Part shown: positions 3,534 through 40,310 of the stretch, piece after piece | Layout: each line of letters begins with the position of its first letter | Position numbering within the stretch: position 1 is the first letter of the stretch | Assembly (NCBI GenBank): GCA_043821445.1 | Contig: JBDRCT010000013.1 | Location: forward strand, 6,270-70,269 | Length of the DNA: 64,000 nucleotides | DNA from: Candidatus Omnitrophota bacterium | Lineage (GTDB): Bacteria > Omnitrophota > Omnitrophia > Omnitrophales > Aquincolibacteriaceae | Reading direction: 5' to 3' | Translations under genes and position numbers: made by a program | Notes under the pieces: generated by a model | Told to the model about the DNA's origin: nothing | What the model saw: the letters and a program-made list of their open reading frames with translations, nothing else | Database searches by the model: none

Positions 3534-3546
3534 GATGAACTACCCG

Positions 3547-4849: not shown

Positions 4850-4888
4850 CTTTCCTTTGTTTCGTTGAGTTAGAAAGTTCAATAAAAA

Positions 4889-4967: not shown

Positions 4968-4986
4968 TAAAGGACGCATTTCTCCT

Positions 4987-6192: not shown

Positions 6193-7259
6193 CGGATAAC
6201 CTCCTTTACGGCATCGAGAGTGGATTTGACCTTAGAGATCGGATCGTCAAAACTGAGCGCAAAATCAGGGTCTTTGAGCCCCGCACCTGTCAGCGTGATC
6301 ACAATGCGGGACCCTTCTTTGAAAAATCCTTTTTTCGCAAGGTTGATCACTCCTGCGACCGGCGCAACGCTGGCCGGTTCCGCGAAAACGCCCTCGCGCT
6401 CCGCGATAAAACGGTACGCCTTCGTGATCTCCGTATCCGTCACCTTATCGATCAGGCCGCCCGATTCGTCGCGCGCGTTAACGGCACCCTGCCAGCTTGC
6501 AGGATTCCCGATACGGATGGCGGTCGCGATCGTCTCCGGTTTCTCCACCGGATGCCCCAGTACGATCGGGGCGGAACCCGCGGCTTGAAAGCCGAGCATT
6601 TTCGGTAAGGTCTCGGACTTCCCCGCTTTTTTATATTCCTTGTAGCCCTTCCAATAAGCCGTGATATTACCGGCATTCCCGACCGGGATCGCGTGATATT
6701 CCGGCGCGTCCCCGAGATCGTCGACGATCTCGAAGGCCGCTGTCTTCTGTCCTTCGATGCGGTACGGATTGATGGAATTTACAAGCGTGATCTTTCCTTC
6801 CCGGGTGATCTCTTGCACGAGCTCAAGCGCCTTGTCAAAATTCCCCTCGACCATAATCACCTTCGAGCCGTAGCGGTACGCCTGCAGGAGTTTTCCTTTG
6901 GCGATCTTCCCTTCCGGGATCAACACAAAACATTTGAGGCCGCACCGGCACGCGTAAGCCGCGGCGGAGGCGGACGTATTCCCGGTCGAGGCGCACATCA
7001 CGGCCTTCGAGCCCGCTTCGACCGCCTTCGAAATCGCCAGGGTCATCCCGCGGTCCTTGAACGAGCCCGTCGGGTTCAGGCCTTCGAATTTGTAATAGAT
7101 CCGGATATTCTTCAGACCAAGTTCCAGGGGCAAGGCCTCCGCCAGAATGAGCGGCGTGTTGCCTTCATTGAGCGAAATGATGGGAGTCTTATCCGTGACC
7201 GGAAGATACTCCTGATAACGCTCGATGATCCCGATCTTTTTGACCGCGTATTTTCCCAT
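6189..7259 (-). CDS. thrC: threonine synthase
   Basis: 356 aa; PLP-lysine motif [18 protein letters not shown]; fold-type II PLP enzyme; short ThrC form. Confidence 0.85.
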
Positions 7260-9599: not shown

Positions 9600-12500
9600 T
9601 TAAGCCGCAACGGCAAAGGCAAGGGTGGCGTCGTAACTTCTCTGAAGGGCATTGACCAGGGACTCGGCCACGATCCAGAACCCATCCCGGCCTTGGCTTA
9701 CTTCCCGAAGCCTTGCATCTTCCCCGCCGGACCACGCCCAAAGGAGCGCTGCCGCCAAGGTCCCGCCATTTTGCCCCTGTGTTTTGAAGAAAGAGACTCT
9801 TTTCCTCAGACGCTGGACCAATTCCTGGGATGGAAGGATCTGCTTTGAAAGATGAATGCCCGGCGCGCCCGGCCGGTCAAAACTGCTCTGAGCCCCCGCA
9901 AGGCCCCGGTCGGTCCTCGTCACGTGATCAAGCTTCAGCAAAGCGCCAAGCTCTTGGTCCCGCACCTGGCCGCGCTCATTATAAACCACGATCCGGACTC
10001 CCTGCCCGGAAAGGGCCGCGTAAAAATATTCGTTCTTCTGCGCCACGGAAAGATTCGGAAAATCCTCGGCATCCACGAACACCGTTGCCGGCTGTACGCT
10101 CTTGCGGATGTCCCGGACCATTCTGTCGGCAATATCTTTATGGGATGTCGCGTTTCTTTTACCGGCTTGTATATTCGTGAGGGTGTGCCGCATATCCGTC
10201 TCAACGCGGACTTCGGAACGACGTTCCGAAACTGCTGCTGCGAACAGCGGATTCTGTTGCAACGGGCGCGCTATCGTCGCAAATAAGTCACGGGTTCTAT
10301 CGGCCCGCTTCATCGCCCAAACGTTTAAAATAGACGCGGTCGGCTCGTTCACATACCGCGTCTCAGGACGGATCTGTCCTTCGCTTTGCAAAGGCGGATC
10401 GGGACGCCGGCCTTCGGCCTTGCTTAAGGCATTACGTTCAACGCTCAACGTATTTTTTTCTTCCGTTGTACGTTTCGCCTTGCCCGTTGTGCCGGAAATC
10501 CCCCTCACCTCGGACCGCTTGGTTCCCTCGCTCGCTTCTGAAGGCCGGGCAATGATTCGATCCAGCTGTGCTTGTTCCTCCCGGAGATGGGGATAATCGT
10601 ACTCAAAAACACCGGACTCGTTCCTGAACATATTAAAATAGGCGCTGACCTTGTCATTCCAGCCATGCGCCGCGACAGCGGCCTGAAGCACGATCGTTTT
10701 CCTGTGGTCTTTGTTCCTGATCGCTTGGATCCCCCGGGTCACCGCCCTCAGAAATCCTTTGCCGTTGAATTCCTGAAAGAAAAATGCATCTCCCATCCCT
10801 CTTTGCGGGTCGAATTCATTCAGCGTATCGGCGATCCCTCCGACCTCGTGGGCCACTACCGCGGTCCCGGCCGAAAGTGATTCCAACTGGCTCAGACCTC
10901 CCGGTTCATATTTCGACGGCATCAAAAAGAGATCGCTCGCGAGATAGATCCTGAGCGCCTCACGGAACGCGATGAACTCAAATTCTCCCCGGACCCTTCC
11001 TGCGTATTTCGGGTCCGCTTCCAGAGCGCGGATCGCGTCCCTAAGCGCATACGCGCTTGGGTCGAAGTCGGCAATCGGGCCCGCGATCAAAAGCTGGACA
11101 CGGGGGTCCCGGTCCAGGATATTTTTCGCTTCGCTGGCCACTAATTCCACGCCCTTCTGGTCCGCGATCCTCCCGACCATGGAAACAAGGATGGCATCCT
11201 CCCGTTCCTCCAGGCCGTATTTGTTTTGAATTTCTCGCTTGGCGAAATCTTTGAATTGGGGCAAGTTTTGGAAAAAAGCGGCCGGGTCTTCTGTCCCGGG
11301 GTCACCCCCGCCCATGCGGATGAATTCGGTCCTCAGGGCTTCGATATCGATCCCGTTACTGATCCCGTAGACCTTTCCCTTCTTGAGAAAGTCTTCATGA
11401 AGACCGTTCCCTTTTTCGGGGGTCTGGATCTCGCGGGCATAACTTTTGCTGACGGTCAATGCGAAATCTGAATGGAGGATCCCTCCGCGGACCAGATTCA
11501 ACCGGGTCGGATGGTCCGGATTTTCCCCTTCGCGATTAGAAAGTCCCCTGTAGTGCTGCCCTTGCAGGCGGAACAGCGGCCACAAGTCGATCCCATTCTC
11601 GATCGTAAAAAAGCGCGCCTGATAATCGCGGCCTAAATTGTGCATGGCAAAACCGAGTTTGGGCACGAGTCCCGTTTCGAGATCATAAAAATGCTCGTCC
11701 GTGCGGTAGTCAAAATCTCCTGGGATCGGATCCGCTTTAAGATAAGCAAAGGCCGGCGCTGCCATCCAGTCATGAGCGAGGATAAAGTCCGGATAAAGGT
11801 CGAACTCCCGCATTACTTCCAGGCTTCCGCGCGACAAAAGGATCGACCGTTTCAATTGGTCGGAGGAGGAAACGCTCGGGTAGAGCCGGTTGGCCAGATG
11901 CGGGTGATAGAGAAAATAGATCGTAACCCCCTCGTTTTGAGCCCGGTAAACCTCCGCCGTCTCCGTGTGCGCGGGACTCTCAACGCGGTTCGAAAAGACA
12001 TTGATCGTGGGCCCCAGCGCGACCTGAACGCGCCGTCCCGTCGCCTCAAGCCGTACCGTTTTCCCGCCCATCTGGATCCCGTTCCGGAGAAGTTCTTCCG
12101 CACTCGTATGTTTTTTCCCCTGCGATTCGTTATAAAGAAAGGTCACGATACTGACTTCGGAACCCGCTTGCGCCAGTGCCTTGGGAAGGCCTTCCAGGAC
12201 CTGGGCCATTCCGCCCGCGATCGAGAACGGGGCGATTTCGGGCGAGATCATGACCACATGCCCGACACCGATATTCTCGATGACCTTCAGCGCGATGTCC
12301 CACTCGCTGCCCGCCCCCGTCTGCAACGCGATTTTCTTCAATTTGTTCCTGTAGTCGGAGACGAGTTGCTGCAGGATCGCGTCATTCCGGGTCACCTCAA
12401 AAAGCCAGCGGGACAGAAGTCCGGGCCCCTTGCCCTCCTCCGCGAGAGTCTGCCGCAAGCGGACCATCACTTGGACGAAGGTATCCAGATTTTTCAGACT

Positions 12501-15500
12501 GCTCTTTATTTCATTTTTCCACTGCGTTCTCATCTCAGCGCGTTTCGCAGCACTTGTGAGTGCGCCTTCCAATGGATGCTTCGGATCATCGGCGGCCCGC
12601 ATCTCAGAACGTGCAACGCCGGTCCCTTTACTTTGAAAATAATGATCGAAGATCCTCTCTGTCTCTTTCGCGGACAATGCACCTTCCTCATGGGGCGGTT
12701 GGATCAAAGAAAAGTTCCCCGGGAGAGGCTTCCCGACCGAAATCACATCCAAACCCGATAGATCCAAAAAGCTCCTGGCGACACCGTCCGCTTGGAATTC
12801 ATCGTCGAATACGATCATCCGTTCCCGGGAATGGCCCATGCCTTCGAGGTCCACGATGGCGTCATTTTTCCCCGTGGTCTTTTTACCGACCAATAAGACC
12901 CGGCCATCCGGACTTCGAAAAACCAGCCTTCCAAAAAATGTCGGCGATAACTGGCCACTTAAGGCCTTTCGCAGGTCCGAAAGCATGATACGTAGCTGCC
13001 ACCTCGGCATTTGGTTCTTGGGATTAACGTAGTAATCAAAATTAGGTGCATAGAGAAAGGGGGAATTTGTTCCGCGTGTTTTTTCTTTCTCAAATTGATC
13101 GAGCATCTTAGGCGTCGGCGCAAACCCGAATATTTCCTGCCACCGCCGATCCAGCTCATAAAGCGCGCTGACAATCTTCGGGCCCTCCCCGGCTTCGTCC
13201 TCTTTCCACCGTCTTTGTTTACCGTATCGTTCGAAATAGGCCTGATCTTCAACGATCTCAATCTTGTCGCGGTCACCGATGCGGAATGTGAATTTATGCC
13301 CAGCGCCCGACGAATAAAGCAGGAACCTGTCAAAATATTCCGGTTTAAAACCGGGATACCCGAAAAGGTTCTTAAGGAACCCTAATCCTCGTCCTTTTTC
13401 AAGGTTGGAAAAATCCGCGGGATTAAAAACACGCAGGGTATCGATCGCAACGGTCTTCCCTTCCTGAAACAGGCGGATCAAATGGTCGATCATCGCCGGA
13501 GAAACATAATCATGAAGAGTCACAAGCGTGTCGTCGACATCAAAAACGAACACATCCTTTTTCTTGAGTATCTCCGAAATATCTTCCCGGGAAGTGAGCC
13601 GCGGTGAAACGGTCGACCGCCAGGATCCTTCCGGTGATAATTTGAAATCGGCCCCCTCCCCGATCGAGATCTGAGCGCCTTGAGAAGCTAACTTAAATCC
13701 GGACCGCTCCAAAACTCCACGAACGGTTAAAGTCCCGACTTCCTGGTTGTTACTCCCCGCCAGCCGACTGAGCCAGCGAATATCTTCGCGGAACTCGTTC
13801 AAAGACTCGGCAATCTCCTCCAATTTGTCCGTGTACTGTCCTTCAAAAGAGTGAATATAATCATTCAGGAAGCCGATCCTATGGGCCAATCCTTCCAGCG
13901 TCATCATCCCCGGCAAAGAAACGCCGTATCCCAGAGAAAGGAATTGAAGTCGGTCACGCAGTTGCGGGTCGGTCACCTGCGGAACAACGGACCGTAAATT
14001 ACGCATCAAACTTCGCATGACCAATGGCGAAATCCGAGGCCTCCCATCGAATGGGTAGATGCAGTCGAGAAGAAACTTAACGGCTTCATTCGCGTTCAGA
14101 GAACCGGACTTTATCCACAGGGCCATGATCAACGCATACACACAGACTTGCATTGTCTCGGCCGCAAAAATGTTAGGGCCGCTATCATGCAACTCTCGCG
14201 CGGAATGCTCCTCCAAGATCCGAAGAATGTTTTCTTGAACGGTCCCCCACATTTCATCCGCTCGCGTCGCCATCGCCGTGATGGCCGCCGCACGAACCGC
14301 CGGGGAGAATCCGAGGACATCGTCAAACTGCTGCTTCTGATCTTCCGTCAGTGTGCGCTGCGCGGACCAAGACCGGATCTTCATGATCACGAGCTCGGGA
14401 TCCGTGTTTCTGTCCCAATGGTTCAGCACATCCAAAGCGTCTTTTCTTTGTCGCAATCGTTCTTCATAGGCCGCCGTGATCACAGACTCCCGTCCGGGAA
14501 CGGAGATTGTCTCGCGCCAATAACTATCCGACATAGATGCCGAACGCTCCCTCCAGACCAAAACCAATTTGCCGTCAAAGATCCGGACCATCTTTTCCAT
14601 AAGAAGCTCGCGCAAACCGTCCGCCAGAGATTTATCATCCTCTTCTGCGACCGCAAGACTCATCGTTCCGGACCGGTAAGCCTCGTCCAACTTTTCGATC
14701 CAGCGCAATGCCACCGGAGATAATCGCCGTTTCTCGAACGCATCCATGAATCCTCGAATCTCCACGCATCGTCTTGCCAGCCAATCCATCTGTTGGTCCG
14801 CACTGCCGCGTTCGATCAGCTTACGGGCATACTCCGGATCCAATTCTCCGAGAGAAAGGAACCATTTTATCCGCGCGACATGTTTGTCGGGAAGCACCAT
14901 GAGCGGAAGAACGCCGCGCCGGATCTGTTCTTCAGGCCCGATAAATTGTCCGTTTGAATAGAGGCTGATATAAGGCAGTAGATTGCGCCCTTCGGGTCCC
15001 CATATCTTTTTTTGATGATCCGCGGACAGCAACTGAGGAACCTTCCCGTCTCCCGCGTCCATTTTGATCCCGGAACCGGTCAGCCATTGTTTCATGAGCG
15101 GCTGTAGCGCCTGGAGTTCCTCCTGCGACACACCTTCGACGATGACATAAGTAGAGTCAAAATCGCTTTGGTCCAGTAAGATCCCCGCTGTCAGCGAATT
15201 TGGGAAAGAAAGAATCTCCTTAACGGAGGCCTGGGGATGGGTCCTGCGGACCTCTTCCTCAAGCCTCATGGTCGCGTATTTCAAAGCAGCCCACACGCGG
15301 CCGCTGATATTGTGAACCGGAACGCCTTCGTCGGCCGCATATTCAGCCATGGAGACCACCGGAACTTTCGCCTCTTGCCCAACCCTTTGGCGGCCATGGT
15401 AATGAGAATTTTCGATCATGCTCGAAGAAGCAAGGACCTTCACACCTTTTTGCTCCAAAGCCGTGATCATCCTCATCTGTTCTTCCCCGTCCGTCAGCTC

Positions 15501-21500: not shown

Positions 21501-24500
21501 ATCCCGCATTTCGGCCCGTACAATGGGAGAAGCTGATTGAGTCATAGCGTTAGTTTTACTAACGGAAGCGTCTAGGGGAACATCCTCGCCCGTGTGTAGG
21601 CGGACCTCGGAACGTAAAACATCTTTGCGCGAGATAGTTGAACTTTCAAGGCGCGCACCGAACGGCTTGCCTGCGGGAAAATCACGCGTAAACCTTTCAA
21701 AACGTTTGAAAAGCGCCACGGCTTGCTCGTAGATCGCATCATCCGTGTTCAGTTTTGACATCTCGAGCAAGAACCATCCCGCATATTGCCAAAGAAAAGT
21801 TCCGCGGATAAATTCGGGCAAGGCTTCGAGCTCTTCGACGGTCAAAGGCTCGCGCGCTTCTGCTTGATATCCCCGCACGATCGCCTGCAGCACCTCAAGA
21901 TCATAAGACCTGCCTTTTTCAGGCCCGCGCGCCATCGCCGGGTTCTTCAGGTCCTCGAGCCGCGCCTGATAACGCAGTTTGCCGTAATCATAGACCGCAA
22001 GTGCGGTATGGCCGTCGCCGGTAAAGCGCATGTTATGAAGGCTTAAGTCCGCGGACACGAACGCCTTCGGCAGTCTTTCATAAAGAGAGTCCGGAAGATT
22101 GGCCCGCAGGATCTTCATTTGGGAGAGAACTAACGGGAGGTTCTCCAAAAAGAGTTTTTCGCCCCGGCCAAGACGCGCTGCTCCTGCGGTGAGCTCTCTG
22201 ATCCGGAGCGCGATCCCTAATGATTCAAAATCTTTGTCCCGCTCAAGGATCGCGATCAACGGTTTTTCGCTCTTGCCGCCCTCCAGCTTAAAGCCTCCGG
22301 AAATATTTTGAAATGCGGCGATCAACGCGCCAAGATCCTCAAATTGTTTTAAGTTCGCGTCCTCATAGCGGATCTCCACACCCCGGGAGATTGCTTCTTC
22401 AAGAACGTAATAACCGCCATCAAGTTCGACCAGAAAATCATCCGCGACATTCCCCGCGCGCCCCTTGAGCGGAATAAGCCGTGGGACTGAAGACACGCCG
22501 CTTTGCTGTAACGCGTTCTGATAAGACACGATGTATTGGGCACCCGGACGGGAAGTGCTTAATTTTTTGAACACGAACGAACCTTCCTTCGATCGAAGGA
22601 GAATAGGCACTTGAGGTTTTACCGCATGCCCGATCGGGTAAGCGATCAGAGGGTCCGACAGTTCTAGATCATAATGGGAACGGACCGCATGGATCTTTTG
22701 ATCGAATGTTACCGGCGTGACGGCCAAGTCTTGAGATTTCGTGCTTTGCGCCATACCACCGCCGAGGTTTTTCTGTATTGTTATCGTCGCGGCAAGGACC
22801 GCCGGCGGTGTCCCGGCCAAGATCGAGAAATGCCTGTCTCGTTGGGCGCGATCAAGGATCGTCTGGTGGATCGCCCGCCCGATCTCAACGGCCGTACCTT
22901 GTTCGATGCTGAACGCAACAAACCCGGCAGTGACTACACCCCCCGCTTTCTTGAATATACCCCCCGCTTTTTTAAGAAGATAGCTTGAGGCAGCGATATC
23001 CCAAAGCGAAGGCCCATGATCACCGCCCTTCCAGAAAAGATGGGGCGCCTCCGTATCTTGACCCGAGTAAGCGATCCCCGCGAGGTTCAGGACTACGGAG
23101 CGCGTGTTATGTGAAATGGACTTCCATCCATCGCCCACTCCCAGGATGGGCGCGAGAACATTCTGAGGGTCATCATCGATCACCGCGCGAAGCTCCCCCG
23201 TCGACGATTCCTGACTGACACGCACCTGTTTTCCGTTCAAGTAAATGCCGCTGCGTTCCGCGGAAGCCTCGATCATGCCGAAACGCGGCGAGGCAACGAC
23301 GGCAAGCACCGGACGGCCCTTATAGTAGAGCGCGAGCGAAATGCCGTAATAGTCACTGCCGGGCTTGAGAAATTCCTTCGTCCCGTCGATCGGATCAAGG
23401 ATCCAGACAAAGTCCGAATCCGCGTTCTGCCAATTTTTCCGGGAGATCTCATTTTCCATCTTTTCTTCCGCGATCACGAAATGCTTCGGAAAACTTCTTT
23501 GGATCTCCGTAATGACGAATTGTTGGATAGTCTCGTCCGCTTCGGTCACAAGAGTAGGATTCCCGGAACCCGGCTCGATCTTGGTTTTTACGTCGAGACT
23601 CGAAAGCCGCCCCCGGAAATCGGCAAGGATCAGGCTTGCTTCACGAACGATCCAGCGGGCTTCAGCGGTCAGATCCCGGACCCGTTTCTTGTCGAGAGAG
23701 GCTTCGCGAAGCTCAAACGCTTTTGGAACGTGTTGGGTCTTTAAAAAAGGAAGTGTCGTCACGAAATTTTTCACGCGCCGGTAGGCTTGAAGAAAGATCT
23801 GAACGAAGCGGATCGCCGCAATGGCAGCTCTCGAGCCCACGATCGAAAGTTCTGCGCTTAAATGAATACCGGGACGCGTCAACACGCGCCCCGACATGCG
23901 AATCCGCTGTTCAAGAAGCCCGACGGTCATATGGAATACCTGCAAGATAACGGATACCGAAGTGCCGACCCGGCTTTCTTTCCAATAAACAGGCACCTCC
24001 TCGACAGTAAAGCCTTTTTCGCGCGCCAGAAGCAAAAGTTCCGTGTCGAAAGAAAGAAGGAGATCCTTCGTATCGGGAACGACCGCGAGCGCCGCTTCCC
24101 GGCTGAACGCCTTAAAGCCGGCCTGTGTATCACGGATTTTCCCCAGGGGCAGAATGAACCGCACCGCGATATTGTAAAGAGCGCTTGAGATGCTCCGAAA
24201 ACCCTCTCTACCGACGACCCGGGACCTGGGATGACCGCGCGAGCCGATCGCGACGCCGGCGCCGCCGGCCACGATCCGCTCCAGAAGCGACCCGACCTGG
24301 ATCAAGTTCGTGGAAAGATCGACATCGGTGTAAACCAGATAATCCGCGCCGCGATCGAGTGCGTCCTTCATCCCGAAAAGAATGCCCCCGCCCTTTTGGC
24401 TCTTTTTATTTTTTGAAAAAATGACGCGGACCTTCCCGGATCTTACGTATTCCGGAAAAAGCTCTTCGGCTTTTTGTGCGATCCGCTTGCCGGTCTTCCC

Positions 24501-27500
24501 CTCCGGGCTCGAATCATCGACGATGATAAGTTCATAATCATAAGAACTGTTCAGCGCGAAGAGCACATCCAACTCTTGCCGCACTTTGACCCTCAGCGCG
24601 TCCTGCCCTTCGATCTCCTCGTCAGGCGAAAAGAAGCGTGTGCCGCTCCTTGAAGAAATAACAATGCTTACCTTTCTTTTTTGGCCTTCGGGCAGGCGCG
24701 GTAATTTCGCCATTGATTCCATCGACTTCTCAAATTCGTACTGGCCTCGATAGGAACTTTCCGCCGGCATGACGGAACAAATAAGCTTCACCGCAGCAGC
24801 GCGAATGCGCTCAAGGATCATGGAACCGGGGCGAGCGGCAAAACGCGCCCGTTCTTCAGCCGACAGCACGGAAACGGTCTGGGACGTATAAGCCAGCCGC
24901 TCAAGCTTTGCCTTGATCTCCGCATGGATCAAAGGCCCCCTCTCGTTCAGCTTGATCTCTTTAAGCGCCCGTGTCTTGATCGCCGTGTAAAGGCCGGAAT
25001 CATCGGAAACCGTATCCGTGCTTGCCTGAAGCACCGGTAACGCTAAGGCTTCAAAAAAATCACCGCCCAGAGGCGCCCGGTCCTCTGCCAAAATGGTCGC
25101 CTCTCCTGTCGCAAGCGCGATCCCCTGCTGAAGCGCTTGTCCCGCCTCATGCGCTCGAGGATTCGTCACAAGTTGGAAGGTGCGGCCTGATGTCTTGGAA
25201 CCCGGTTCCTCGCTTAGCCGTTTGAGTTCCTCGAACCGTTCGCGCCGGAGTGTTTGACTGCGCGCGTCAACGGTAACGATCACTTGCTCGCTGACTTTTC
25301 CGCTTTGTTCAGAATGGAGATATTCGCTGAGCCGGTCGATGAAGGTGTCATCACTGAGTGTTGTGCCTATCACGATCGAAACCTGCGGGCGAACCCCCTC
25401 CGCCAGATCCTCCCCGGTCTGCTTCGCCCCAGCATCCCGCATCTCAGAACGGGCCGCCTTGGGATCTGGGCGAGCCTCGCTCCGTGCTTTGCCGGAGCGG
25501 GTGTTCAGAAAATGAAGGAAGGTTTTTTCGAGGCCTTCCCGAAGAGGAATGGCCGGAGCATATCCCAGGAACACGCGGGCTCTCGTAAGGTCAGGCCGGC
25601 GCCGGGCGGGATCGGAGGGATCTTTGACCTCCGCGATCCGGACAGGGACCGTTCTGTGAAGGTATTTTTGACCGAGTGCGTTGACAAGGTCCGCAAGCTC
25701 GCGAAGCGTGAACTCTGAATCATTGCCGATATTGAAAACGCGTTTCTGGACCGGCGTCTCCGGGCCCAGCTTGTCCGATCTCAGGAGCTTCAACAACCCG
25801 TCCACGGTATCATCTACATATCCGAAGCTCCGCGTGATCTTGTCGTTCCCATTGATCTCGATCGGTTTCCCTTGAAGCACTTTTTCGATGAAATTCGTGA
25901 TCACGCGCCCGTCATCGATCCGCATGAAAGGCCCGTAGGTATTAAAGATCCTTGCGATGCGGAGGTCGAGTCCTTCTCCGGCATAACGCGAGGCGTACAA
26001 TTTCATTAATGTTTCCGCGCCGCGCTTGGATTGGTCATACTGGGACCGCATCCTGAAGGGGCTGACGTTCCCCGCATAGGTCTCGGGCTGGGGATGGACC
26101 GCGGCATCCCCGTAAACTTCGGAGGTCGATGTGAAAAGGAACTGCGCGTGCTTGCGGCGCGCCAATTCCATCATTTCACGGATAGCCTGCAATCCGGCCC
26201 GTAGAGCTTCACGAGGATGCCCATAATAATCCGGCGGACTCGCGAGCGATGCAAGATGAAGGACCTGGTCGACAGGCCCTTCGATCTCGAAGGATTCGGA
26301 AACATCCCACTGTCTGAAATAAAAGTCCGGTTCATCCCGGAAGAACGAGGCGAAATCCTTGTTCGCACTTATCAGATTATCCAGGGCAATGACCTGATTC
26401 CCTTCCGCGAGAAGCTTCTTCACAAGGTTGATACCGATGAACCCTGCAGCACCCGTGACCACGATCCGTTTTTTCCCGCTCGGGACCCGCGGCAGAACCG
26501 GCCGGATAATCTCCGGTGCTGCATCGTTCTTTCCCGCTCTTACGATTTCAGCGATCGCACTCGGTTCCAGCAAAAGGTCCGATTCCGGAGTACGGGTTGT
26601 CTTAAGCACCTCCTCCAACCGGAATATCCTCGCTTCCATCTGGGCTTCGGGCGTCCTTGGCGTTTGTTTCTTTTTTAGGATGGCCGCCAAGGACAGCTCC
26701 GATTTCCGATCGTCTTTTTGATGATAATCGGTCGTCCCTGTGGCATCCCGGATATTTCTCGATAAGATATTTTTGACACCCTCCGCAATCTGCTCCGGAG
26801 AAACTTCCTTCCCGGGAAGCTGAAGCACGCGCACATCGACATTGCCCAATTCCTTGAAACGGAAGTAGGCGCTGGCCCAGGCTAACGCCGTGCGGGCCCC
26901 TTCGATCCAGGGCGCTTCATCCGCCAGCGGCCCGAACCCGTCCAGTTTCTCCGGGATCACAAGGACCACGGGCAATTTTTCCCGGGCGGCGCGTTCGAGA
27001 AGTTTTGGGAATTCAAAAACCATGGCGTGGAAATCGCGCCATGCCCGGTCGAGATCCGCCGGCCCCTTCGGCAAAAGCGGTGTTTGATACGCCAGCCCTT
27101 TTTCCGCACCGGTCTTGGCATCCCTCACCACCCAGGCCTTGGGTTCTTCCTTGGATGCGCTCAATCCGCTGATCATTTGCCGTGCCTCAGAGCGAATGCT
27201 TGGTGCTGTGGCCTTTTGGCCGGATTGCGGTTGATCAGAAGCGATGAGGCCCTTTTCAATCATAAGATTCAGAGTTGCGGGATCCAGCTCACTGCGCAGG
27301 TCACCGGCCAAGGAAGCCATCACGGCGAGTCTTTGGTGAATGACATTTTCTCCCCATGCATTCGCCATGACAAATTCGCTTTCGGGTCTTGCGGCCCGGG
27401 CGACATGAACAGGGACTTCAAAGGAGTGATGGCCCACCGACATTAGCTGTTTGTAATAGGCCTGGTGCCGTTTATCGTCCGGGTTGAACCGCGGAGAGAC

Positions 27501-29042
27501 CACGACGTAGGAAAAGCCTTTTTCCCGGAGGATCTCCTTGATCTTGTTGGCGTGGAATCCCCCGAAAACCAGCACCGCGGTCTCTTCTTTGCCATTCTCG
27601 GAAAAATCCTTGAGACGAGCCTCGACCGAGCTGTCTCTGGAATGGGCCGCCTCGTAGAACCGGACCGGGTCCTTGATGTGCCGTTCCCATTCCTTGGAAA
27701 GCACAAGTGACTTATGGGTTTGAGAAGCGACGAACTCGGCAAGGTCTTGCGTCCGAAGATCCTGAAGCGTTCCTTTGACCGCCTCGTATTCTTCGGGGGT
27801 CAATTCGATACGATTCAAACGCTGAAGCAGTTTCAACCCCTGATAATATCCGAAAATTTTTCGATCTCGTTCGTTTTTGAGAAAATCGGTCGAGATCTCT
27901 GTTTCTAATTTCCCCATTTCTTTAAAGATCACGGAAGAATCCAGCAGGTTCACTTGGTCGAGCAATTTCCGGTCTTCCGACGACTGGGCCATCAAAAGGA
28001 CCGAAAGAGCCGGATACTCCCCGGAAAACCGCTCCGCCGCTTCGGCCTCTTTGTTTTTAAGATAGAGGGAGTGCAGATCTTTCAAGTAATCGAGCAACGG
28101 AAGTTGCCCGGCATGAAAACGCTCCTGCTTTTTCAAAAGCGTTTTGAGGTCTTTTGGGAAAAATTGGTCGGCAAGGATCGTGACCCGGGCCAAAAGACAG
28201 GCGAGGTCTTCTTCCGTTTCTTTCTTGTTCTTCGACGCATCCTGATAATGCCGGATATTTTCGCGATAAAGCTTCAGGTCATCGACGCCGATCAAATTCC
28301 AATCAGGGTTTAGGGGGTAGGGTTTAGGATTTAGATCATTTGAATTCTCTTTTTTACTATCTCCTATCCCCTGTACCCTATCCGCTAATTTCCGGTTGAT
28401 GTGCGCATATTCCGCTCCGCCGATACGGAGTTTATCCAACAGGAAATAGGAAACTTTTTGTTTGATCGCCGGGTCTTTGATGAATCCAAAGAACTTGTCC
28501 GTGGGAACGGGCCCTTCGTAGCCTTCTTCAAAAACCGTTTTGATCCCCTTTTCTTTCACGAGCAGGTTGATGATCTTGGCAATGTTCTCCTGGGCTTCGA
28601 GGGAGTCGTGGGCGTCTTGAATGAAAACGATAAAACGAGACCGGAGACTGGAGACTGGAGACTGAAGACTTTTTTCCCTCACCCTGTCCCTCGCCCGAAG
28701 GGAGAGGGAGTCTGCGGTCTGTAGTCTGTCCTGATTCTTGTTTTCATTTGATGGAGGGTAGTCAGGACTGCCCCAATTTCCGCTCCGCTGAAATTGAAAA
28801 GTATTGGGACTGTGGTCTGTGGTCGGAAAATAGACCTCGTCTATTTTCCCGAGTTCTTTGGGAATCGAGAAGAGCGCCGGTCCGGGATCAACCGCTACGG
28901 TAGAAGGGCTTGCATAGCCTTGGGGGGCATAGCGAAAGGCATCGAACAGGGTAAAAATAAGAATGACAAACGTCGCCGTGACCCGGCGCCAAAAAAGGCC
29001 GTTTTGCCATATGTTATGTGATGATTTCATTCCAAAATTCAT
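9600..29042 (-). CDS. Giant 6480-aa multi-enzyme fusion protein (carbohydrate / cyclitol / glycolipid-type biosynthetic megaprotein)
   Basis: A single uninterrupted 19,443-nt ORF at about 57% GC starting with ATG at 29042. It has an N-terminal hydrophobic anchor (RRVTATFVILIFTLFDAF). A dozen recognisable enzyme domains are recorded as separate sub-features below. Convergent terminator at 9552-9583. Confidence 0.85.
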   Translation of the reverse strand: MNFGMKSSHNIWQNGLFWRRVTATFVILIFTLFDAFRYAPQGYASPSTVAVDPGPALFSIPKELGKIDEVYFPTTDHSPNTFQFQRSGNWGSPDYPPSNENKNQDRLQTADSLSLRARDRVREKSLQSPVSSLRSRFIVFIQDAHDSLEAQENIAKIINLLVKEKGIKTVFEEGYEGPVPTDKFFGFIKDPAIKQKVSYFLLDKLRIGGAEYAHINRKLADRVQGIGDSKKENSNDLNPKPYPLNPDWNLIGVDDLKLYRENIRHYQDASKNKKETEEDLACLLARVTILADQFFPKDLKTLLKKQERFHAGQLPLLDYLKDLHSLYLKNKEAEAAERFSGEYPALSVLLMAQSSEDRKLLDQVNLLDSSVIFKEMGKLETEISTDFLKNERDRKIFGYYQGLKLLQRLNRIELTPEEYEAVKGTLQDLRTQDLAEFVASQTHKSLVLSKEWERHIKDPVRFYEAAHSRDSSVEARLKDFSENGKEETAVLVFGGFHANKIKEILREKGFSYVVVSPRFNPDDKRHQAYYKQLMSVGHHSFEVPVHVARAARPESEFVMANAWGENVIHQRLAVMASLAGDLRSELDPATLNLMIEKGLIASDQPQSGQKATAPSIRSEARQMISGLSASKEEPKAWVVRDAKTGAEKGLAYQTPLLPKGPADLDRAWRDFHAMVFEFPKLLERAAREKLPVVLVIPEKLDGFGPLADEAPWIEGARTALAWASAYFRFKELGNVDVRVLQLPGKEVSPEQIAEGVKNILSRNIRDATGTTDYHQKDDRKSELSLAAILKKKQTPRTPEAQMEARIFRLEEVLKTTRTPESDLLLEPSAIAEIVRAGKNDAAPEIIRPVLPRVPSGKKRIVVTGAAGFIGINLVKKLLAEGNQVIALDNLISANKDFASFFRDEPDFYFRQWDVSESFEIEGPVDQVLHLASLASPPDYYGHPREALRAGLQAIREMMELARRKHAQFLFTSTSEVYGDAAVHPQPETYAGNVSPFRMRSQYDQSKRGAETLMKLYASRYAGEGLDLRIARIFNTYGPFMRIDDGRVITNFIEKVLQGKPIEINGNDKITRSFGYVDDTVDGLLKLLRSDKLGPETPVQKRVFNIGNDSEFTLRELADLVNALGQKYLHRTVPVRIAEVKDPSDPARRRPDLTRARVFLGYAPAIPLREGLEKTFLHFLNTRSGKARSEARPDPKAARSEMRDAGAKQTGEDLAEGVRPQVSIVIGTTLSDDTFIDRLSEYLHSEQSGKVSEQVIVTVDARSQTLRRERFEELKRLSEEPGSKTSGRTFQLVTNPRAHEAGQALQQGIALATGEATILAEDRAPLGGDFFEALALPVLQASTDTVSDDSGLYTAIKTRALKEIKLNERGPLIHAEIKAKLERLAYTSQTVSVLSAEERARFAARPGSMILERIRAAAVKLICSVMPAESSYRGQYEFEKSMESMAKLPRLPEGQKRKVSIVISSRSGTRFFSPDEEIEGQDALRVKVRQELDVLFALNSSYDYELIIVDDSSPEGKTGKRIAQKAEELFPEYVRSGKVRVIFSKNKKSQKGGGILFGMKDALDRGADYLVYTDVDLSTNLIQVGSLLERIVAGGAGVAIGSRGHPRSRVVGREGFRSISSALYNIAVRFILPLGKIRDTQAGFKAFSREAALAVVPDTKDLLLSFDTELLLLAREKGFTVEEVPVYWKESRVGTSVSVILQVFHMTVGLLEQRIRMSGRVLTRPGIHLSAELSIVGSRAAIAAIRFVQIFLQAYRRVKNFVTTLPFLKTQHVPKAFELREASLDKKRVRDLTAEARWIVREASLILADFRGRLSSLDVKTKIEPGSGNPTLVTEADETIQQFVITEIQRSFPKHFVIAEEKMENEISRKNWQNADSDFVWILDPIDGTKEFLKPGSDYYGISLALYYKGRPVLAVVASPRFGMIEASAERSGIYLNGKQVRVSQESSTGELRAVIDDDPQNVLAPILGVGDGWKSISHNTRSVVLNLAGIAYSGQDTEAPHLFWKGGDHGPSLWDIAASSYLLKKAGGIFKKAGGVVTAGFVAFSIEQGTAVEIGRAIHQTILDRAQRDRHFSILAGTPPAVLAATITIQKNLGGGMAQSTKSQDLAVTPVTFDQKIHAVRSHYDLELSDPLIAYPIGHAVKPQVPILLRSKEGSFVFKKLSTSRPGAQYIVSYQNALQQSGVSSVPRLIPLKGRAGNVADDFLVELDGGYYVLEEAISRGVEIRYEDANLKQFEDLGALIAAFQNISGGFKLEGGKSEKPLIAILERDKDFESLGIALRIRELTAGAARLGRGEKLFLENLPLVLSQMKILRANLPDSLYERLPKAFVSADLSLHNMRFTGDGHTALAVYDYGKLRYQARLEDLKNPAMARGPEKGRSYDLEVLQAIVRGYQAEAREPLTVEELEALPEFIRGTFLWQYAGWFLLEMSKLNTDDAIYEQAVALFKRFERFTRDFPAGKPFGARLESSTISRKDVLRSEVRLHTGEDVPLDASVSKTNAMTQSASPIVRAEMRDETVSSPTSMVITGASGDLGAMLGRYAEAQRSPLKLIVRSPNSKKKYSDRTLREASGAEFYLSDLFDRVKMKKVIAQSPVFYHLAALVGLDKDAGTYPENFKVNGLAAIGLLKMAEEVNPDVRFIFASSERVISIEKNPAINRWIEGALQLIDENPELFQEPNYSTAMDKLTELILSKYPFPEGVYPYELSKLLVERYIQRGVLKKAVAVRITSIYGPGNLSGRKMQRMIEARLLGRTITEKREIRDYIYIQDAIEVLYQLGVRKDLPEQRVVDLAPQAEVSAEKIWDMIVKHTPDAKGKIEWKGEPTPANPQSNQISRNLLGRDFTYIETGVRNQIDEARRRLDPGIPAETGKGPVLVIDAGGTSTRMAVWDGEKLTDAIKFPTVNYTSAEAQGKPIDRMQEVWLESLAQKIREYRERHPDIQSVSMGFAGPVGEDGDLTESSVIWGPDRNRIPHAVLQNRWGLPVKVVNDLTTAVYRYGRSPKFAGMRTIALITVSSGIGSKLFDVVHGNVVIDRQGRAGEIGHTIVDYAGNAIQGEGLKGELNAYASGRGLSNLAKRMAGQKKYRTFYEGSALRAEIEKTGQTIETVDRDVLTRLLVELIKKNDGFSIQVMKSSVGYLVRVLGPFILQNAPDAIVWMGSIAENLEPVYLDEVIEQLISKGLYGYNRDDLKKMFVMGEKDDENGLRGAGLMACDKQGVASAQPAYDPGYVRDNVDPHGHNVIEAVAPNDVQQRNYYTEGAFDLDNRVLANVLEGRNVIFVVEKAVADKVLEPLKRYLQHYHMEGRCKGEIQVLDGGEKIKSAEQVKSLTDYAQERNLDRNGVFVVVGGGAIMDMVGMVANQFRRGVRYVRIPTTLLGQVDAAVGVKVGIDYRTAKNFLGAFYPPFATITDTRFLETLPERQIQGGIAEIIKVALISNTSLFEVLEKYGTAFIRDMPRDAKWTFIKDAAVELLKHLQMDFFEHNLMRHVDFGHVLAHKFESMTNYELTHGEAVAIDILMSAFIAHARGMLSDKDFRRILSLHIKLKLPFYHPALNPDRAWEGLEDAKAHKGGRLMMVVPIGIGRTAFVDSLRRDELDAALDFLRRHQEQADDAVMTHEIEENHPPAELKYLGRYLETLPRDPTNYATEITGVLEELVTPSVQKVINIAMNQSLDPKIWGQALGMLTKFGLHSDSAGTVFTLESARSPDLKKIRFVRQGTTFIPDLPTQTQTETEIAQQLLDRDTFAFGLDDVLISPAGFDPEVIGLIIELLKRHKTVALVTARGLTVEDYFANIRKGDGIGILKNIFEHPDFKPEMLGRLFAYTGFGTYKYGFRLRHNQQPPSWFNVEPVLETKFSAKFVASKTFSEEDGKYLPAIMRKILEIENGFSTDFGFPNPDRDYEGFVRGAKIQEDERAILYFPQSKQGEIENWKLRIMLENLKEALSRALPPEVFSLLTFRVVSRKGIVVAKTFNQKNEALLDLEAMGLSRKKVSFWGHDFAADGLEVSLLKLPGLTRVSVAAPLPGEVPVLQLRSSDADTGPDRAKRILKAYFKLINENSRRSEMRTGEDAVSQALRRIRINGELLILENVRETSLGVFRREADVLGSMDPEWVLRSIFGKASSEVISEDEKRMFFYEGRIQPVNVVFHPKFRPAEMLHSNAPKKGVPITGSHQPLSVVMGESIVHALLEKLRGTPEGRRMLEQMKGDPTRSFIIGKYNAGLVPGILASLELGIPMITLTKRSFDPFDPTLPAGESVVQMEEQHMLRDSPEYFSHMVVPAGSRFFLIDDESTTGRVVVNIANMLKAANAGLDGAAVVLRTSKEASERLEGGAVPYFYLDFLTEEELAKVSAALDRQHMFPFKQPVELYMPPESVEAQGLSGPTDLDLDIRHYPRRNDPGRVWTDHAFRGMTVPLTPDQLRKFGPAMQQKIEKVLGTPLATIRREYYKEGKTVYVLGPSTSGFYGGVALSQASHVPFVGVTNRPEPVGYDEMSSLAVNYIGLDGYAYSMYRLMPGDAVILVTGELTDGEEQMRMITALEQKGVKVLASSSMIENSHYHGRQRVGQEAKVPVVSMAEYAADEGVPVHNISGRVWAALKYATMRLEEEVRRTHPQASVKEILSFPNSLTAGILLDQSDFDSTYVIVEGVSQEELQALQPLMKQWLTGSGIKMDAGDGKVPQLLSADHQKKIWGPEGRNLLPYISLYSNGQFIGPEEQIRRGVLPLMVLPDKHVARIKWFLSLGELDPEYARKLIERGSADQQMDWLARRCVEIRGFMDAFEKRRLSPVALRWIEKLDEAYRSGTMSLAVAEEDDKSLADGLRELLMEKMVRIFDGKLVLVWRERSASMSDSYWRETISVPGRESVITAAYEERLRQRKDALDVLNHWDRNTDPELVIMKIRSWSAQRTLTEDQKQQFDDVLGFSPAVRAAAITAMATRADEMWGTVQENILRILEEHSARELHDSGPNIFAAETMQVCVYALIMALWIKSGSLNANEAVKFLLDCIYPFDGRPRISPLVMRSLMRNLRSVVPQVTDPQLRDRLQFLSLGYGVSLPGMMTLEGLAHRIGFLNDYIHSFEGQYTDKLEEIAESLNEFREDIRWLSRLAGSNNQEVGTLTVRGVLERSGFKLASQGAQISIGEGADFKLSPEGSWRSTVSPRLTSREDISEILKKKDVFVFDVDDTLVTLHDYVSPAMIDHLIRLFQEGKTVAIDTLRVFNPADFSNLEKGRGLGFLKNLFGYPGFKPEYFDRFLLYSSGAGHKFTFRIGDRDKIEIVEDQAYFERYGKQRRWKEDEAGEGPKIVSALYELDRRWQEIFGFAPTPKMLDQFEKEKTRGTNSPFLYAPNFDYYVNPKNQMPRWQLRIMLSDLRKALSGQLSPTFFGRLVFRSPDGRVLLVGKKTTGKNDAIVDLEGMGHSRERMIVFDDEFQADGVARSFLDLSGLDVISVGKPLPGNFSLIQPPHEEGALSAKETERIFDHYFQSKGTGVARSEMRAADDPKHPLEGALTSAAKRAEMRTQWKNEIKSSLKNLDTFVQVMVRLRQTLAEEGKGPGLLSRWLFEVTRNDAILQQLVSDYRNKLKKIALQTGAGSEWDIALKVIENIGVGHVVMISPEIAPFSIAGGMAQVLEGLPKALAQAGSEVSIVTFLYNESQGKKHTSAEELLRNGIQMGGKTVRLEATGRRVQVALGPTINVFSNRVESPAHTETAEVYRAQNEGVTIYFLYHPHLANRLYPSVSSSDQLKRSILLSRGSLEVMREFDLYPDFILAHDWMAAPAFAYLKADPIPGDFDYRTDEHFYDLETGLVPKLGFAMHNLGRDYQARFFTIENGIDLWPLFRLQGQHYRGLSNREGENPDHPTRLNLVRGGILHSDFALTVSKSYAREIQTPEKGNGLHEDFLKKGKVYGISNGIDIEALRTEFIRMGGGDPGTEDPAAFFQNLPQFKDFAKREIQNKYGLEEREDAILVSMVGRIADQKGVELVASEAKNILDRDPRVQLLIAGPIADFDPSAYALRDAIRALEADPKYAGRVRGEFEFIAFREALRIYLASDLFLMPSKYEPGGLSQLESLSAGTAVVAHEVGGIADTLNEFDPQRGMGDAFFFQEFNGKGFLRAVTRGIQAIRNKDHRKTIVLQAAVAAHGWNDKVSAYFNMFRNESGVFEYDYPHLREEQAQLDRIIARPSEASEGTKRSEVRGISGTTGKAKRTTEEKNTLSVERNALSKAEGRRPDPPLQSEGQIRPETRYVNEPTASILNVWAMKRADRTRDLFATIARPLQQNPLFAAAVSERRSEVRVETDMRHTLTNIQAGKRNATSHKDIADRMVRDIRKSVQPATVFVDAEDFPNLSVAQKNEYFYAALSGQGVRIVVYNERGQVRDQELGALLKLDHVTRTDRGLAGAQSSFDRPGAPGIHLSKQILPSQELVQRLRKRVSFFKTQGQNGGTLAAALLWAWSGGEDARLREVSQGRDGFWIVAESLVNALQRSYDATLAFAVAA
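10600..12270 (-). other. Giant ORF domain: GT-B glycosyltransferase, glycogen/starch-synthase-like (GT5/GT4)
   Basis: VVMISPEIAPFSIAGGMAQVLEGLPKALAQAGSEVSIV (GlgA-like N-terminus, about 12178-12265) and C-terminal MPSKYEPGGLSQLESLSAGTAVVAHEVGGIADTL (about 10820-10925). Confidence 0.65.
12300..13600 (-). other. Giant ORF: HAD-superfamily phosphatase module B (canonical DxDxT motif I)
   Basis: DVFVFDVDDTLVTL at about 13512-13558 ... WQLRIMLSDLRKALS at about 12958-13000 ... IVDLEGMGHSRERMIVFDDEFQADG...PLPGNFSLIQ. Confidence 0.6.
16150..16650 (-). other. Giant ORF domain: type I phosphoribosyltransferase-like fold
   Basis: SFIIGKYNAGLVPGILASLELGIPMITLTKRS ... FFLIDDESTTGRVVVNIANML (PRPP-loop-like, about 16178-16225). 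Confidence 0.45.
16650..18200 (-). other. Giant ORF: HAD-like module A (motif I degenerate, FAFGLDDVLIS) plus a conserved downstream region
   Basis: FAFGLDDVLISPAG at about 17795-17835 ... WKLRIMLENLKEALS at about 17222-17265 ... LLDLEAMGLSRKKVSFWGHDFAADG...PLPGEVPVLQ. This is a paralogous copy of module B. Confidence 0.5.
18230..19420 (-). other. Giant ORF domain: 3-dehydroquinate-synthase-like sugar-phosphate cyclase (DHQS / DOIS / EEVS superfamily)
   Basis: VFVVVGGGAIMDMVGMVA (about 18990-19045), RYVRIPTTLLGQVDAAVGVKVGIDY, KNFLGAFYPP, HGEAVAIDI. Confidence 0.65.
19430..20440 (-). other. Giant ORF domain: ROK-family sugar kinase (glucokinase / N-acetylhexosamine kinase-like)
   Basis: VLVIDAGGTSTRMAVWD (about 20390-20440) ... 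ITVSSGIGSKLFD ... GRAGEIGHTIVD ROK signature. Confidence 0.65.
20470..21480 (-). other. Giant ORF domain: second SDR-type NAD(P)-dependent epimerase/dehydratase
   Basis: MVITGASGDLGAMLG (about 21444-21478) ... YPYELSKLLVE (YxxxK) ... SIYGPGN. Confidence 0.6.
21700..22720 (-). other. Giant ORF domain: aminoglycoside-phosphotransferase/choline-kinase-like (APH fold) small-molecule kinase
   Basis: ...LVELDGGYYVLEEA..., SADLSLHNMRF catalytic-loop-like motif at about 22018-22055, ...AVYDYG... Confidence 0.5.
22900..23690 (-). other. Giant ORF domain: inositol monophosphatase / CysQ-like phosphatase
   Basis: ADETIQQFVITEI..., the diagnostic WILDPIDGTKEF motif at about 23378-23415, ...GKQVRV... 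Confidence 0.7.
23870..24690 (-). other. Giant ORF domain: GT2 glycosyltransferase (polyprenyl-phosphate sugar transferase / ArnC-DPM1-like)
   Basis: KVSIVISSRSG..., YELIIVDDSSPEGKT (about 24510-24550), YLVYTDVDLS, DTQAGFKAF. Confidence 0.7.
25490..26480 (-). other. Giant ORF domain: extended-SDR NAD-dependent epimerase/dehydratase, UDP-glucuronate decarboxylase (UXS/ArnA C-terminal)-like
   Basis: KRIVVTGAAGFIGINLVKKLL Rossmann motif at about 26440-26480, ...SEVYGD..., YDQSKRGAE (YxxxK), NTYGP. Confidence 0.7.
28290..28380. repeat. Low-complexity G-rich / C-rich inverted repeat (GGGTTTAGG-like) inside the giant ORF
   Basis: ggtttagggggtagggtttaggatttag ... ctatctcctatcccctgtaccctatccgc, in frame, encoding ..GDSKKENSNDLNPKPYPLNPDW.. 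Confidence 0.6.
28640..28818. repeat. Composite repeat block embedded in frame in the 5' end of the giant ORF
   Basis: It contains a GGAGACT heptad repeat (3 units), a short palindrome, a GTCTGYGGTCTGT heptad stretch and a gccccaatttccgc...gaaattg...tattggg hairpin motif. The hairpin element also occurs intergenically at 49300-49352. The block encodes ..FPTTDHSPNTFQFQRSGNWGSP.. Confidence 0.75.
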
Positions 29043-29301
29043 GTTTCTAAAGCCTTTTTAAACGGTGGATTTCCCCAATAGAGAGGATGCCGGAAGGATA
29101 ACCTCTGTTTTTGATTTTAACAAGGGTAGCGGGTAAAATAAATCCGGCCATTTGTAGAGACAAAATGGGCTAATTTAGGGGGTGGGATTAACATTTCCCA
29201 AGGAGGGAGCCTGGAGCCCTCCTTGTATGGCTAGGGGGCGAGGCGTGGTCAGAGCTTAAATTTCAGGTCATCGAAAAACTTGTCAGTGCAGGAAAAGGCT
29301 T

Positions 29302-29634
29302 TTAACGGCCTTTGCGGGCGGCATAACCAAAATTAAAAAAGTATCGCCTCCAGGATTTTTCCGTGGAACCGAACTCGTTCGCTCCCGAGAAGTAATCCAC
29401 AAGCGCTTCCCTTACCCGGGCTACTTCTTTGAGGCGCGACCCGCCCCACCCGCTGTCCAAAGTGAGATCGGCCAATTCAAGCGCGCGCTCAAAAGCCTTT
29501 TGGGAATGCGCCGCGTTATGCTTGGCTTGCCAGTTCAGGGCCCTTTCCACCTCGCTACCGATATGGGCCATTTGCTCAACAAATGCCATTTTCGCCCAGC
29601 GCCCGTCCGCAAAATTCTGGTGCTGATAGATCAT
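29302..29634 (-). CDS. hypothetical small hydrophilic protein
   Basis: 110-aa ORF between the MsbA-like gene and the giant ORF on the same strand. No motif recognised. Confidence 0.4.
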   Translation of the reverse strand: MIYQHQNFADGRWAKMAFVEQMAHIGSEVERALNWQAKHNAAHSQKAFERALELADLTLDSGWGGSRLKEVARVREALVDYFSGANEFGSTEKSWRRYFFNFGYAARKGR

Positions 29635-29687
29635 CGCCGAATCTTCTCTAGAACGCTCCGAGGATCTTCATGATGACAAGTCCCCCC

Positions 29688-40297: not shown

Positions 40298-40310
40298 GGT
40301 CTTCCCTCCT

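Follow-up and report, generated by a model that had tools for sequence, protein, structure and literature searches.

Giant proteins that join many metabolic enzyme domains in one chain are known from Omnitrophota, where two preprints describe them under the class name "multi-enzyme metabolic cluster" (West-Roberts et al. 2023, 10.1101/2023.11.21.568195; Nielsen & Lui 2026, 10.64898/2026.06.07.730766), and giant open reading frames (ORFs) occur across the classes of this phylum (Seymour et al. 2023). The domain vocabulary of the multi-enzyme giants includes GT5, GT1, ROK, radical S-adenosylmethionine (SAM), HAD, NUDIX, and phosphoglucomutase domains, mostly together with signal peptides or transmembrane helices (one or the other was found by DeepTMHMM in 94% of the Omnitrophota giants; 10.64898/2026.06.07.730766). 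Whether these giants act uncut or cleaved is an explicit question in the field: possible post-translational cleavage is discussed, and missing cleavage-point information prevented the proteins from being cut for analysis (10.1101/2023.11.21.568195). Here, we analyze a gene encoding a protein of this kind (hereafter, the megagene and the megaprotein) in a stretch of 64,000 nucleotides from a Candidatus Omnitrophota bacterium (assembly GCA_043821445.1, contig JBDRCT010000013.1, positions 6,270 to 70,269; this whole 64-kb stretch is referred to as the window).

The megagene is a single ORF on the minus strand (9600 to 29042) with an ATG start and 6,480 codons plus a stop, and its translation contains no internal stop. 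A protein in NCBI (P0001; 6,476 amino acids [aa], with a start four codons further downstream) is 100% identical to it; the record, which is titled [quoted passage not shown] belongs to a 151-kb contig. The ORF and the size reported in an initial annotation of the window are thus confirmed. That annotation considered the lineage undecidable from the window, while the NCBI protein matches and the loci in species genomes point to Omnitrophota. Its view that the protein belongs to no described kind does not stand, given the published giants with the same vocabulary, and its statement that Omnitrophota giants are mostly of the adhesion or repeat type has been outdated by the 2023 and 2026 preprints.

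The megaprotein resembles the published giants in its phylum, in the many distinct enzyme Pfams that tile the chain with none dominating, and in the prevalence of signal peptides or transmembrane segments. It differs in size, since the 2026 catalogue covers proteins of at least 10 kilo-amino acids (kaa) and the 2023 study far larger genes, whereas the megaprotein (6,480 aa) lies below that threshold. The giants also often contain tens of transmembrane helices and C39/S8 peptidase or SecA-like domains, whereas the megaprotein has one hydrophobic segment. The conserved N-terminal module (N-module), C-terminal module (C-module), and linker motif reported below, as well as cleavage points, are absent from West-Roberts et al. 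2023, Nielsen & Lui 2026, and Seymour et al. 2023. The kind of protein is known, and its frame and punctuation appear to be undescribed.

Family frame and conserved end modules

The megaprotein is one member of a very large, Omnitrophota-restricted modular family. The family frame is composed of a signal-peptide-like N-terminus, the N-module, a variable number of enzyme cargo modules, and the C-module with an apolar ...A-A end. The elements of the megaprotein are as follows (window coordinates; residue numbers in parentheses).

9600..29042, minus strand: entire gene of 6,480 codons and a stop; the NCBI protein P0001 is identical
28908..29042, minus strand: Sec-type signal-peptide-like N-terminus (1 to 45), with a basic n-region containing RR, the hydrophobic core VTATFVILIFTLF, and "QGYA/SP"
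27195..28655, minus strand: N-module (130 to 616), with IQDAHDSLEAQEN, EEGYEGPVP, GGAEYAHINR, and FGGFH
27180..27194, minus strand: motif 1, RSEAR (617 to 621), immediately after the N-module
26493..27125, minus strand: cargo domain without family assignment (640 to 850), conserved upstream of the UXS-like short-chain dehydrogenase/reductase (SDR) in several paralogs
25521..26471, minus strand: extended SDR (858 to 1174), UXS/ArnA/dTDP-glucose-dehydratase-like; Pfam Epimerase/GDP_Man_Dehyd, E = 7e-61; below all equivalog cutoffs
25437..25484, minus strand: motifs 2 and 3, RSEAR (1187) and RSEMR (1198)
21783..25415, minus strand: block C (1210 to 2420), with a glycosyltransferase (GT)-like region, a GT2 domain, an inositol-monophosphatase-like domain, and an APH/CotS-like kinase
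21504..21614, minus strand: motifs 4 and 5, RSEVR (2477) and RAEMR (2509)
16893..21476, minus strand: block D (2523 to 4050), with a second SDR, a ROK kinase, a DHQS-superfamily sugar-phosphate cyclase, and HAD-like module 1
16869..16883, minus strand: motif 6, RSEMR (4054), at a position kept in five cassette-sharing relatives
12633..16445, minus strand: block E (4200 to 5470), with two phosphoribosyltransferase (PRTase)-like domains, approximately 550 aa without assignment, and HAD-like module 2
12528..12611, minus strand: motifs 7 and 8, RSEMR (5478) and RAEMR (5501)
10809..12260, minus strand: GT5/GT1 glycogen/starch-synthase-like glycosyltransferase (5595 to 6078); Pfam Glyco_transf_5, E = 8e-39, and Glycos_transf_1, E = 8e-16
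10206..10517, minus strand: motifs 9 and 10, RSEVR (6176) and RSEVR (6275), with the variant RPETR (6225)
9603..10175, minus strand: C-module (6290 to 6480), ending in ...AFAVAA-COOH

A search with residues 1 to 5000 returned 164 proteins at E ≤ 1e-20. Among the 120 matches listed (2.7 to 7.8 kaa), all organism-named proteins but one (Verrucomicrobiae) are from Omnitrophota/Omnitrophica. Most of them have only 8 to 12% of the query in common and carry quite different enzyme sets, with radical SAM, methyltransferase, HD, NUDIX, kinase, PPDK_N, GNAT, HATPase, and HEAT domains as cargo. Mapping of the matches showed that residues ~130 to 600 are common to 116 of 119 relatives and are always N-terminal and that residues ~6290 to 6480 are always C-terminal. 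A profile of the N-module matched 8,048 cluster representatives at E ≤ 1e-3 (2,095 at E ≤ 1e-30) among 1.84 billion, and the module was N-terminal in all of the top 150 matches. The C-module hidden Markov model matched 94 of 201 family proteins and reached the last residue in nearly all of these. Short members (805 to 1,200 aa) consist of the N-module, one cargo, and the C-module. We located 152 loci in species genomes, with several carrier paralogs per genome; the named records are all Omnitrophota save one bin ("uncultured Planctomycetales"). The megaprotein fits this bracketed carrier family on all four traits (i.e., N-module, C-module, boundary motif, and cysteine depletion). The relative P0090 departs from this pattern: with 55 Cys in 7,655 aa its cysteine content is not low, and it does not end in ...A-A.

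Both end modules are globular alpha/beta folds, and neither was matched in Pfam, NCBIfam, or PDB sequence searches. Eleven residues of the N-module are invariant (D143, H145, E149, E172, E173, R206, E211, H214, R217, G494, and H497), and of these D143-x-H145, E172-E173, and H497 sit after predicted beta-strands. We infer a TIKI/ChaN/erythromycin-esterase-like fold for this module, in which D-x-H, E-E, and G-G-F-H resemble a 2His/2Glu site such as that of RRSP. [quoted passage not shown] The N-module differs from this superfamily in having no sequence-profile link to it, a helical insertion of ~230 residues, and Asp at the position of the first Glu. With PF04187, PF01963, and PF05139, 1 of 21 members gave a match, a weak one to ChaN (E = 0.19), and a Foldseek search of the N-module against PDB returned nothing significant. 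The C-module (~190 aa) has a Rossmannoid HAD fold and is apparently noncatalytic, judging from the alignment of C-modules (alignment A2), where the column of the catalytic DxD nucleophile after strand 1 is not conserved.

Punctuation motif and putative export signal

The pentapeptide R-[SA]-E-[AVMILT]-R occurs 10 times in the megaprotein, compared with an expectation of 0.14 from 2,000 shuffles, none of which exceeded 3. Relaxing the pattern to R-x-E-x-R adds a single copy (the RPETR at 6225), and the other six-frame matches in the window number only three, in ORFs of ≤162 codons. The enrichment extends to the family: 201 relatives (660 kaa) contain 1,229 copies versus 14.9 ± 4.5 expected, and RSELR, RSEVR, and RSEMR are the top three 5-mers in the first 120 relatives. 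The sequence around the motif is almost uninformative and is less hydrophobic than the average. Codon choice at the ten megaprotein sites varies freely (CGN/AGR, TCN/AGC, and GAA/GAG), so the constraint acts at the protein level. A DNA-level origin (i.e., a repeat, a recombination scar, or an RNA element) was rejected on account of this codon variation and the lack of an Rfam match; the window contains neither Rfam matches nor tRNAs.

All copies in the megaprotein are interdomain. The relative P0075 has 17 copies, none within Pfam envelopes, which flank single enzymes. The median spacing is 333 aa, and close pairs 10 to 60 aa apart form a second class. The site after "...EKTFLYFLNS" (-RSEAR) is kept in eight of eight paralogs although the downstream cargo differs. 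The sequence of the mark itself is diversified. Ala takes the place of Ser in 19% of copies, and RAExR is the sole form in some members, which makes phosphorylation unlikely as the essential role of the motif. Other members use different motifs, 50 to 200 times above expectation: RPEAR in P0064 (8 copies versus 0.14 expected), [STA]-G-F-G-[AV] in P0042 (14 versus 0.24), and R-T-S-P in P0090 (10 versus 0.05), in each case with the first copy just past the N-module. In a single metagenome-assembled genome (MAG; JBMONI01), locus L008 has four RSExR and one RAExR, and locus L021 has one RSExR and eight RAExR. A short, specific mark with a diversified sequence would be expected if a sequence-specific protein reads the site, a situation best known from polyproteins, in which a protease recognizes its cleavage sites. 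An explanation by a 2A-like translational "skip" was set aside, as nothing but the presence of a motif lies behind the idea.

Residues 1 to 45 hold the only strongly hydrophobic segment of the megaprotein, Rossmann strands aside. In the ~60 relatives inspected, the N-terminus likewise has a basic n-region and a hydrophobic core of 15 to 20 residues; small residues then lead up to a likely signal-peptidase site. Under the positive-inside rule, basic residues ahead of a hydrophobic segment put the bulk of a protein outside. Cysteine accounts for 0.108% of the megaprotein (7 Cys) as against 0.97% for the remaining 22 genes in the window (P = 5e-19; ~9-fold depletion), and the family content is 0.15%. 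Proteins that pass the envelope in an unfolded state, such as RTX toxins and autotransporter passengers, typically contain little cysteine. A twin arginine (FWRRVTA; residues 19 to 20, window ~28983 to 28988) precedes the hydrophobic core in the megaprotein and its closest relatives, and NCBI labels the relative P0120 as a twin-arginine translocation (Tat)-signal protein. Tat export was discarded as the general route, since most family members have only isolated Lys or Arg residues there.

Cargo enzymes and competing explanations

The main domain calls rest on Pfam matches above the gathering score; the APH/CotS, PRTase-like, and HAD-IIB-like calls lie below curated cutoffs. With that distinction, essentially all domain calls of the initial annotation, and their order, hold. 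The leading cargo domain (residues 640 to 850) matched no family in Pfam or NCBIfam. In block C, the GT2 region spans residues 1460 to 1700 (Pfam match, 1499 to 1650; E = 3e-10), followed by Inositol_P (1796 to 2036; E = 4e-31; above the gathering score) and the kinase (2150 to 2420; Pfam E = 7.5e-4; NCBIfam CotS E = 4e-10). Block D begins with the second SDR (2523 to 2730) and ROK (2872 to 3207; E = 7e-20), both above the gathering score, and continues with the cyclase (3262 to 3556 as a whole), in which DHQ_synthase and DHQS_C match residues 3307 to 3556 (Pfam E = 2e-36 and 2e-24). Blocks D and E are kept together as a cassette in P0002 to P0006. The PRTase-like domains of block E lie at residues 4200 to 4320 and 4435 to 4575 (E = 1e-4 to 4e-7). 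The two HAD-IIB-like modules (E = 0.002 to 0.14) are mutual paralogs (31% identity; E = 6e-51). The DVDDT motif is intact in module 2 (5160 to 5470), and Gly replaces the nucleophile Asp in module 1 (FGLDDVL; 3735 to 4050, window 16893 to 17840). The first PRTase-like domain has "FFLIDDESTTG," which resembles a phosphoribosyl pyrophosphate (PRPP) loop, and the second (window 15318 to 15740) has "VILVTGELTDG." From these residues, HAD-like module 1 and the second PRTase-like domain are likely inactive copies.

None of the cargo domains reached an NCBIfam equivalog cutoff. The GT5/GT1 domain scored 245 bits against the glgA subfamily (cutoff, 328), and the cyclase fell below both AroB equivalogs (TIGR01357, 245 bits, cutoff 305; NF004852, 291 bits, cutoff 333). 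Among solved structures, the cyclase is closest to 4P53 (E = 2.5e-61), which is ValA, a 2-epi-5-epi-valiolone synthase, and to 5TPR (3.5e-52), a desmethyl-4-deoxygadusol synthase (DDGS); dehydroquinate synthases follow (≤2e-46). Gene clusters for C7-cyclitols of the acarbose/validamycin type are composed of enzyme classes that recur in the megaprotein (i.e., a ValA/DDGS-like cyclase, ROK, SDRs, HAD-like phosphatases, an APH-like kinase, and GT5). In contrast to such clusters and to AROM, the megaprotein joins its enzymes in one predicted exported chain with all domains below equivalog cutoffs, and no nucleotidyltransferase or aminotransferase was detected in it, compared with C7-cyclitol gene clusters. 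The sugar/cyclitol flavor proposed earlier thus gains from the nearest cyclase structures and remains plausible but unproven; the cargo may make or remodel a cyclitol- or glucan-type compound. The further proposal of an entire pathway in one polypeptide is still conjecture, with all cargo below equivalog cutoffs and at least two modules without key catalytic residues. The ~2,000 aa previously noted as unassigned are real, and ~660 aa of them can now be attributed to the conserved N- and C-terminal family modules.

The reading that we tentatively prefer for the megaprotein is an exported polyprotein-like carrier with motifs that act as recognition, and probably cleavage, sites. The chain would be exported via the Sec pathway, and the punctuation motifs would be site-specific recognition sites, most probably proteolytic. 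Cuts at the motifs would give the N-module, five cargo blocks (565, 1,274, 1,540, 1,419, and 670 aa), and the C-module, and the N-module itself would be the best candidate reader. The cleavage, the reader enzyme, and the destination are all inferred.

Two known systems have a comparable layout. The MARTX toxins (Vibrio RtxA; 3.5 to 5.2 kaa; PMC4453568) combine conserved ends with variable, shuffled enzyme modules and site-specific processing in between. The megaprotein is not a member of this group: its cargo is of metabolic type rather than cytotoxic effectors, its putative processing motif is different, and it has an N-terminal signal-peptide-like segment instead of a C-terminal type I secretion signal with linked secretion genes. 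As for the glycine-rich/RTX repeat arms of MARTX toxins, Pfam gave no RTX/HemolysinCabind match at E ≤ 0.01 in the megaprotein (no dedicated tandem-repeat scan was made). Pfam also gave no match to Peptidase_C80, the inositol hexakisphosphate-activated cysteine protease domain, and the chain has only the seven Cys. Viral polyproteins have short motifs at unit boundaries that differ by lineage, as RSExR, RAExR, RPEAR, GFGA, and RTSP do in the carriers. The carriers differ from them in being cellular, predicted to be exported, and far larger, with a putative protease and putative cleavage.

Several observations weigh against processing of an exported carrier. The signal-peptide call was made by inspection, without a predictor. 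The cargo would need ATP, NAD, nucleotide sugars, and PRPP, and in paralogs also SAM and Fe-S clusters, as deduced from domain identities; such cofactor-dependent enzymes outside the cytoplasm constitute a localization paradox. Three blocks would still contain several enzymes, which means that some domain junctions carry no motif, and in several divergent relatives RSExR lies inside the folded C-module ("QRSEVRFVVY" and "LRSEIRQYQ"; alignment A2). P0042 keeps the invariant residues of the N-module while using the chemically unrelated GFGA, and the MAG described above has both RSExR- and RAExR-dominated paralogs; these two cases fit poorly with the N-module alone setting specificity. When the neighbors of 80 loci were clustered, no protease or secretion gene was found to be consistently linked to carrier genes.

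Regarding the paradox, the cargo might, speculatively, act in a compartment with cytoplasm-like chemistry, such as a host or prey cell. The one cultured Omnitrophota predator is reported to form an open cytoplasmic contact with its prey, in which predator RNA was found (PMC13153191), and this reported contact and transfer make action inside a host cell conceivable. A bolder version, in which thousands of Sec-exported carriers have a TIKI-like N-module cutting co-evolving motifs, the freed enzymes rewire host or prey metabolism, and a MARTX-like logic evolved independently, seems unlikely to us.

An uncleaved, tethered multi-enzyme scaffold resembling AROM is possible, although we give it a limited weight; the motif would then serve for nonproteolytic docking or recognition by a partner, or be a structural part of the linkers. 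The blocks of 1.27 to 1.54 kaa that hold several enzymes without a motif in between and the copies inside the folded C-module of relatives speak for such a scaffold, as does the precedent of multi-enzyme chains (AROM appears in the PDB matches of the cyclase domain). It accounts less well for a sharp five-residue island without flank conservation: since the unrelated GFGA and RTSP replace RSExR at the same places, a sequence-specific reader fits better than a structural linker. Moreover, motif pairs 10 to 60 aa apart would free short spacers, and paralogs combine unrelated enzymes in their cargo sets, without an evident pathway in common.

The view of the initial annotation, a cytoplasmic fused biosynthetic pathway, would make the hydrophobic N-terminus a mere membrane tether, and we consider it improbable. 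The requirement for ATP, NAD, nucleotide sugars, and PRPP and the radical-SAM domains of paralogs would suit a cytoplasmic location, but basic residues before and signal-peptidase-like sites after the hydrophobic segment are found family-wide, and Cys is depleted 9-fold relative to the neighboring cytoplasmic enzymes. The signal peptide, the end modules, the R-S-E-x-R motif, and the Cys depletion together disfavor a simple cytoplasmic pathway. Even less probable, in our estimation, is that the motif is a periodic handle for a translocase or holdase on a very long unfolded substrate rather than a cleavage site. The regular spacing of approximately one domain would agree with a handle, and the signal peptide and Cys depletion suggest unfolded passage, but the 80 loci have no linked translocase or chaperone gene, and short members with one cargo still have two to six copies, close pairs included. 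A polymorphic-toxin reading was set aside, as there is no recurrent downstream gene in these loci and the cargo domains called in the megaprotein are metabolic-type enzymes. Finally, an artifact (i.e., an assembly chimera or frameshifts joining ordinary genes) has a negligible probability, as the identical ORF on the public 151-kb contig, the hundreds of independently assembled relatives with the same terminal brackets, the family motif in frame along the whole megaprotein, the uniform composition along 9600 to 29042, and a family architecture without missing parts (N-module N-terminal, C-module ending exactly at the C-terminus) argue against it and for a genuine ORF.

Gene neighborhood and significance

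Around the megagene lie chromosomal genes of the ordinary kind for a diderm bacterium. Downstream are genes for LeuA-like, aspartate kinase, phosphoglycerate mutase, threonine synthase, and homoserine dehydrogenase proteins; upstream are an MsbA-like ABC exporter, LpxB, a Tad/Flp pilus cluster, GltB/GltD, a PPDK_N protein, two CarB, and CarA. The exporter gene (29688 to 31451, minus strand) lies directly upstream on the same strand and is the only recurrent neighbor among the 80 loci; the same arrangement occurs in 10 of them (including L004), and the adjacency may reflect only synteny among close relatives. The 646-nucleotide gap between exporter and megagene contains a 110-aa ORF (29302 to 29634, minus strand; MIYQHQNFADGRWAK...) without a Pfam match. 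Near the start of the megagene (28900 to 29750), no consensus promoter or terminator could be recognized on its strand.

The Tad/Flp cluster (33992 to 46088, minus strand) encodes a CpaC-like secretin, RcpC/CpaB, a GGDEF protein, two TadB/C-like T2SSF proteins, a CpaF-like ATPase, a CpaE/ParA-like ATPase, and a VWA protein; Tad pili are a host-association trait discussed for Omnitrophota (Seymour et al. 2023). The G+C content is 0.47 to 0.49 at ~44000 to 48000, compared with ~0.53 to 0.56 elsewhere; the dip covers the last part of the pilus cluster and a region (46.1 to 47.8 kb) in which no ORF reaches 250 aa. At 54032 to 56191 (minus strand) lies a gene for a stand-alone 719-aa protein with PPDK_N only, a domain (PF01326) that is frequent as carrier cargo. 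Two full-length carbamoyl-phosphate synthase large-subunit genes stand in tandem (56629 to 59916 and 59926 to 63147, minus strand), followed by a CarA-like GATase gene (63168 to 63938) and the window edge.

No Pfam or NCBIfam model covers the N-module family and its thousands of members, which is an annotation gap. The bracketing modules and motifs provide candidate processing sites, a candidate enzyme with named residues, and a rule for dividing these proteins into units suited to structure prediction and expression, and the question of "one chain or many?" for Omnitrophota giants becomes directly testable. Resolving the localization paradox would inform how ultrasmall, probably host-dependent bacteria interact with other cells.

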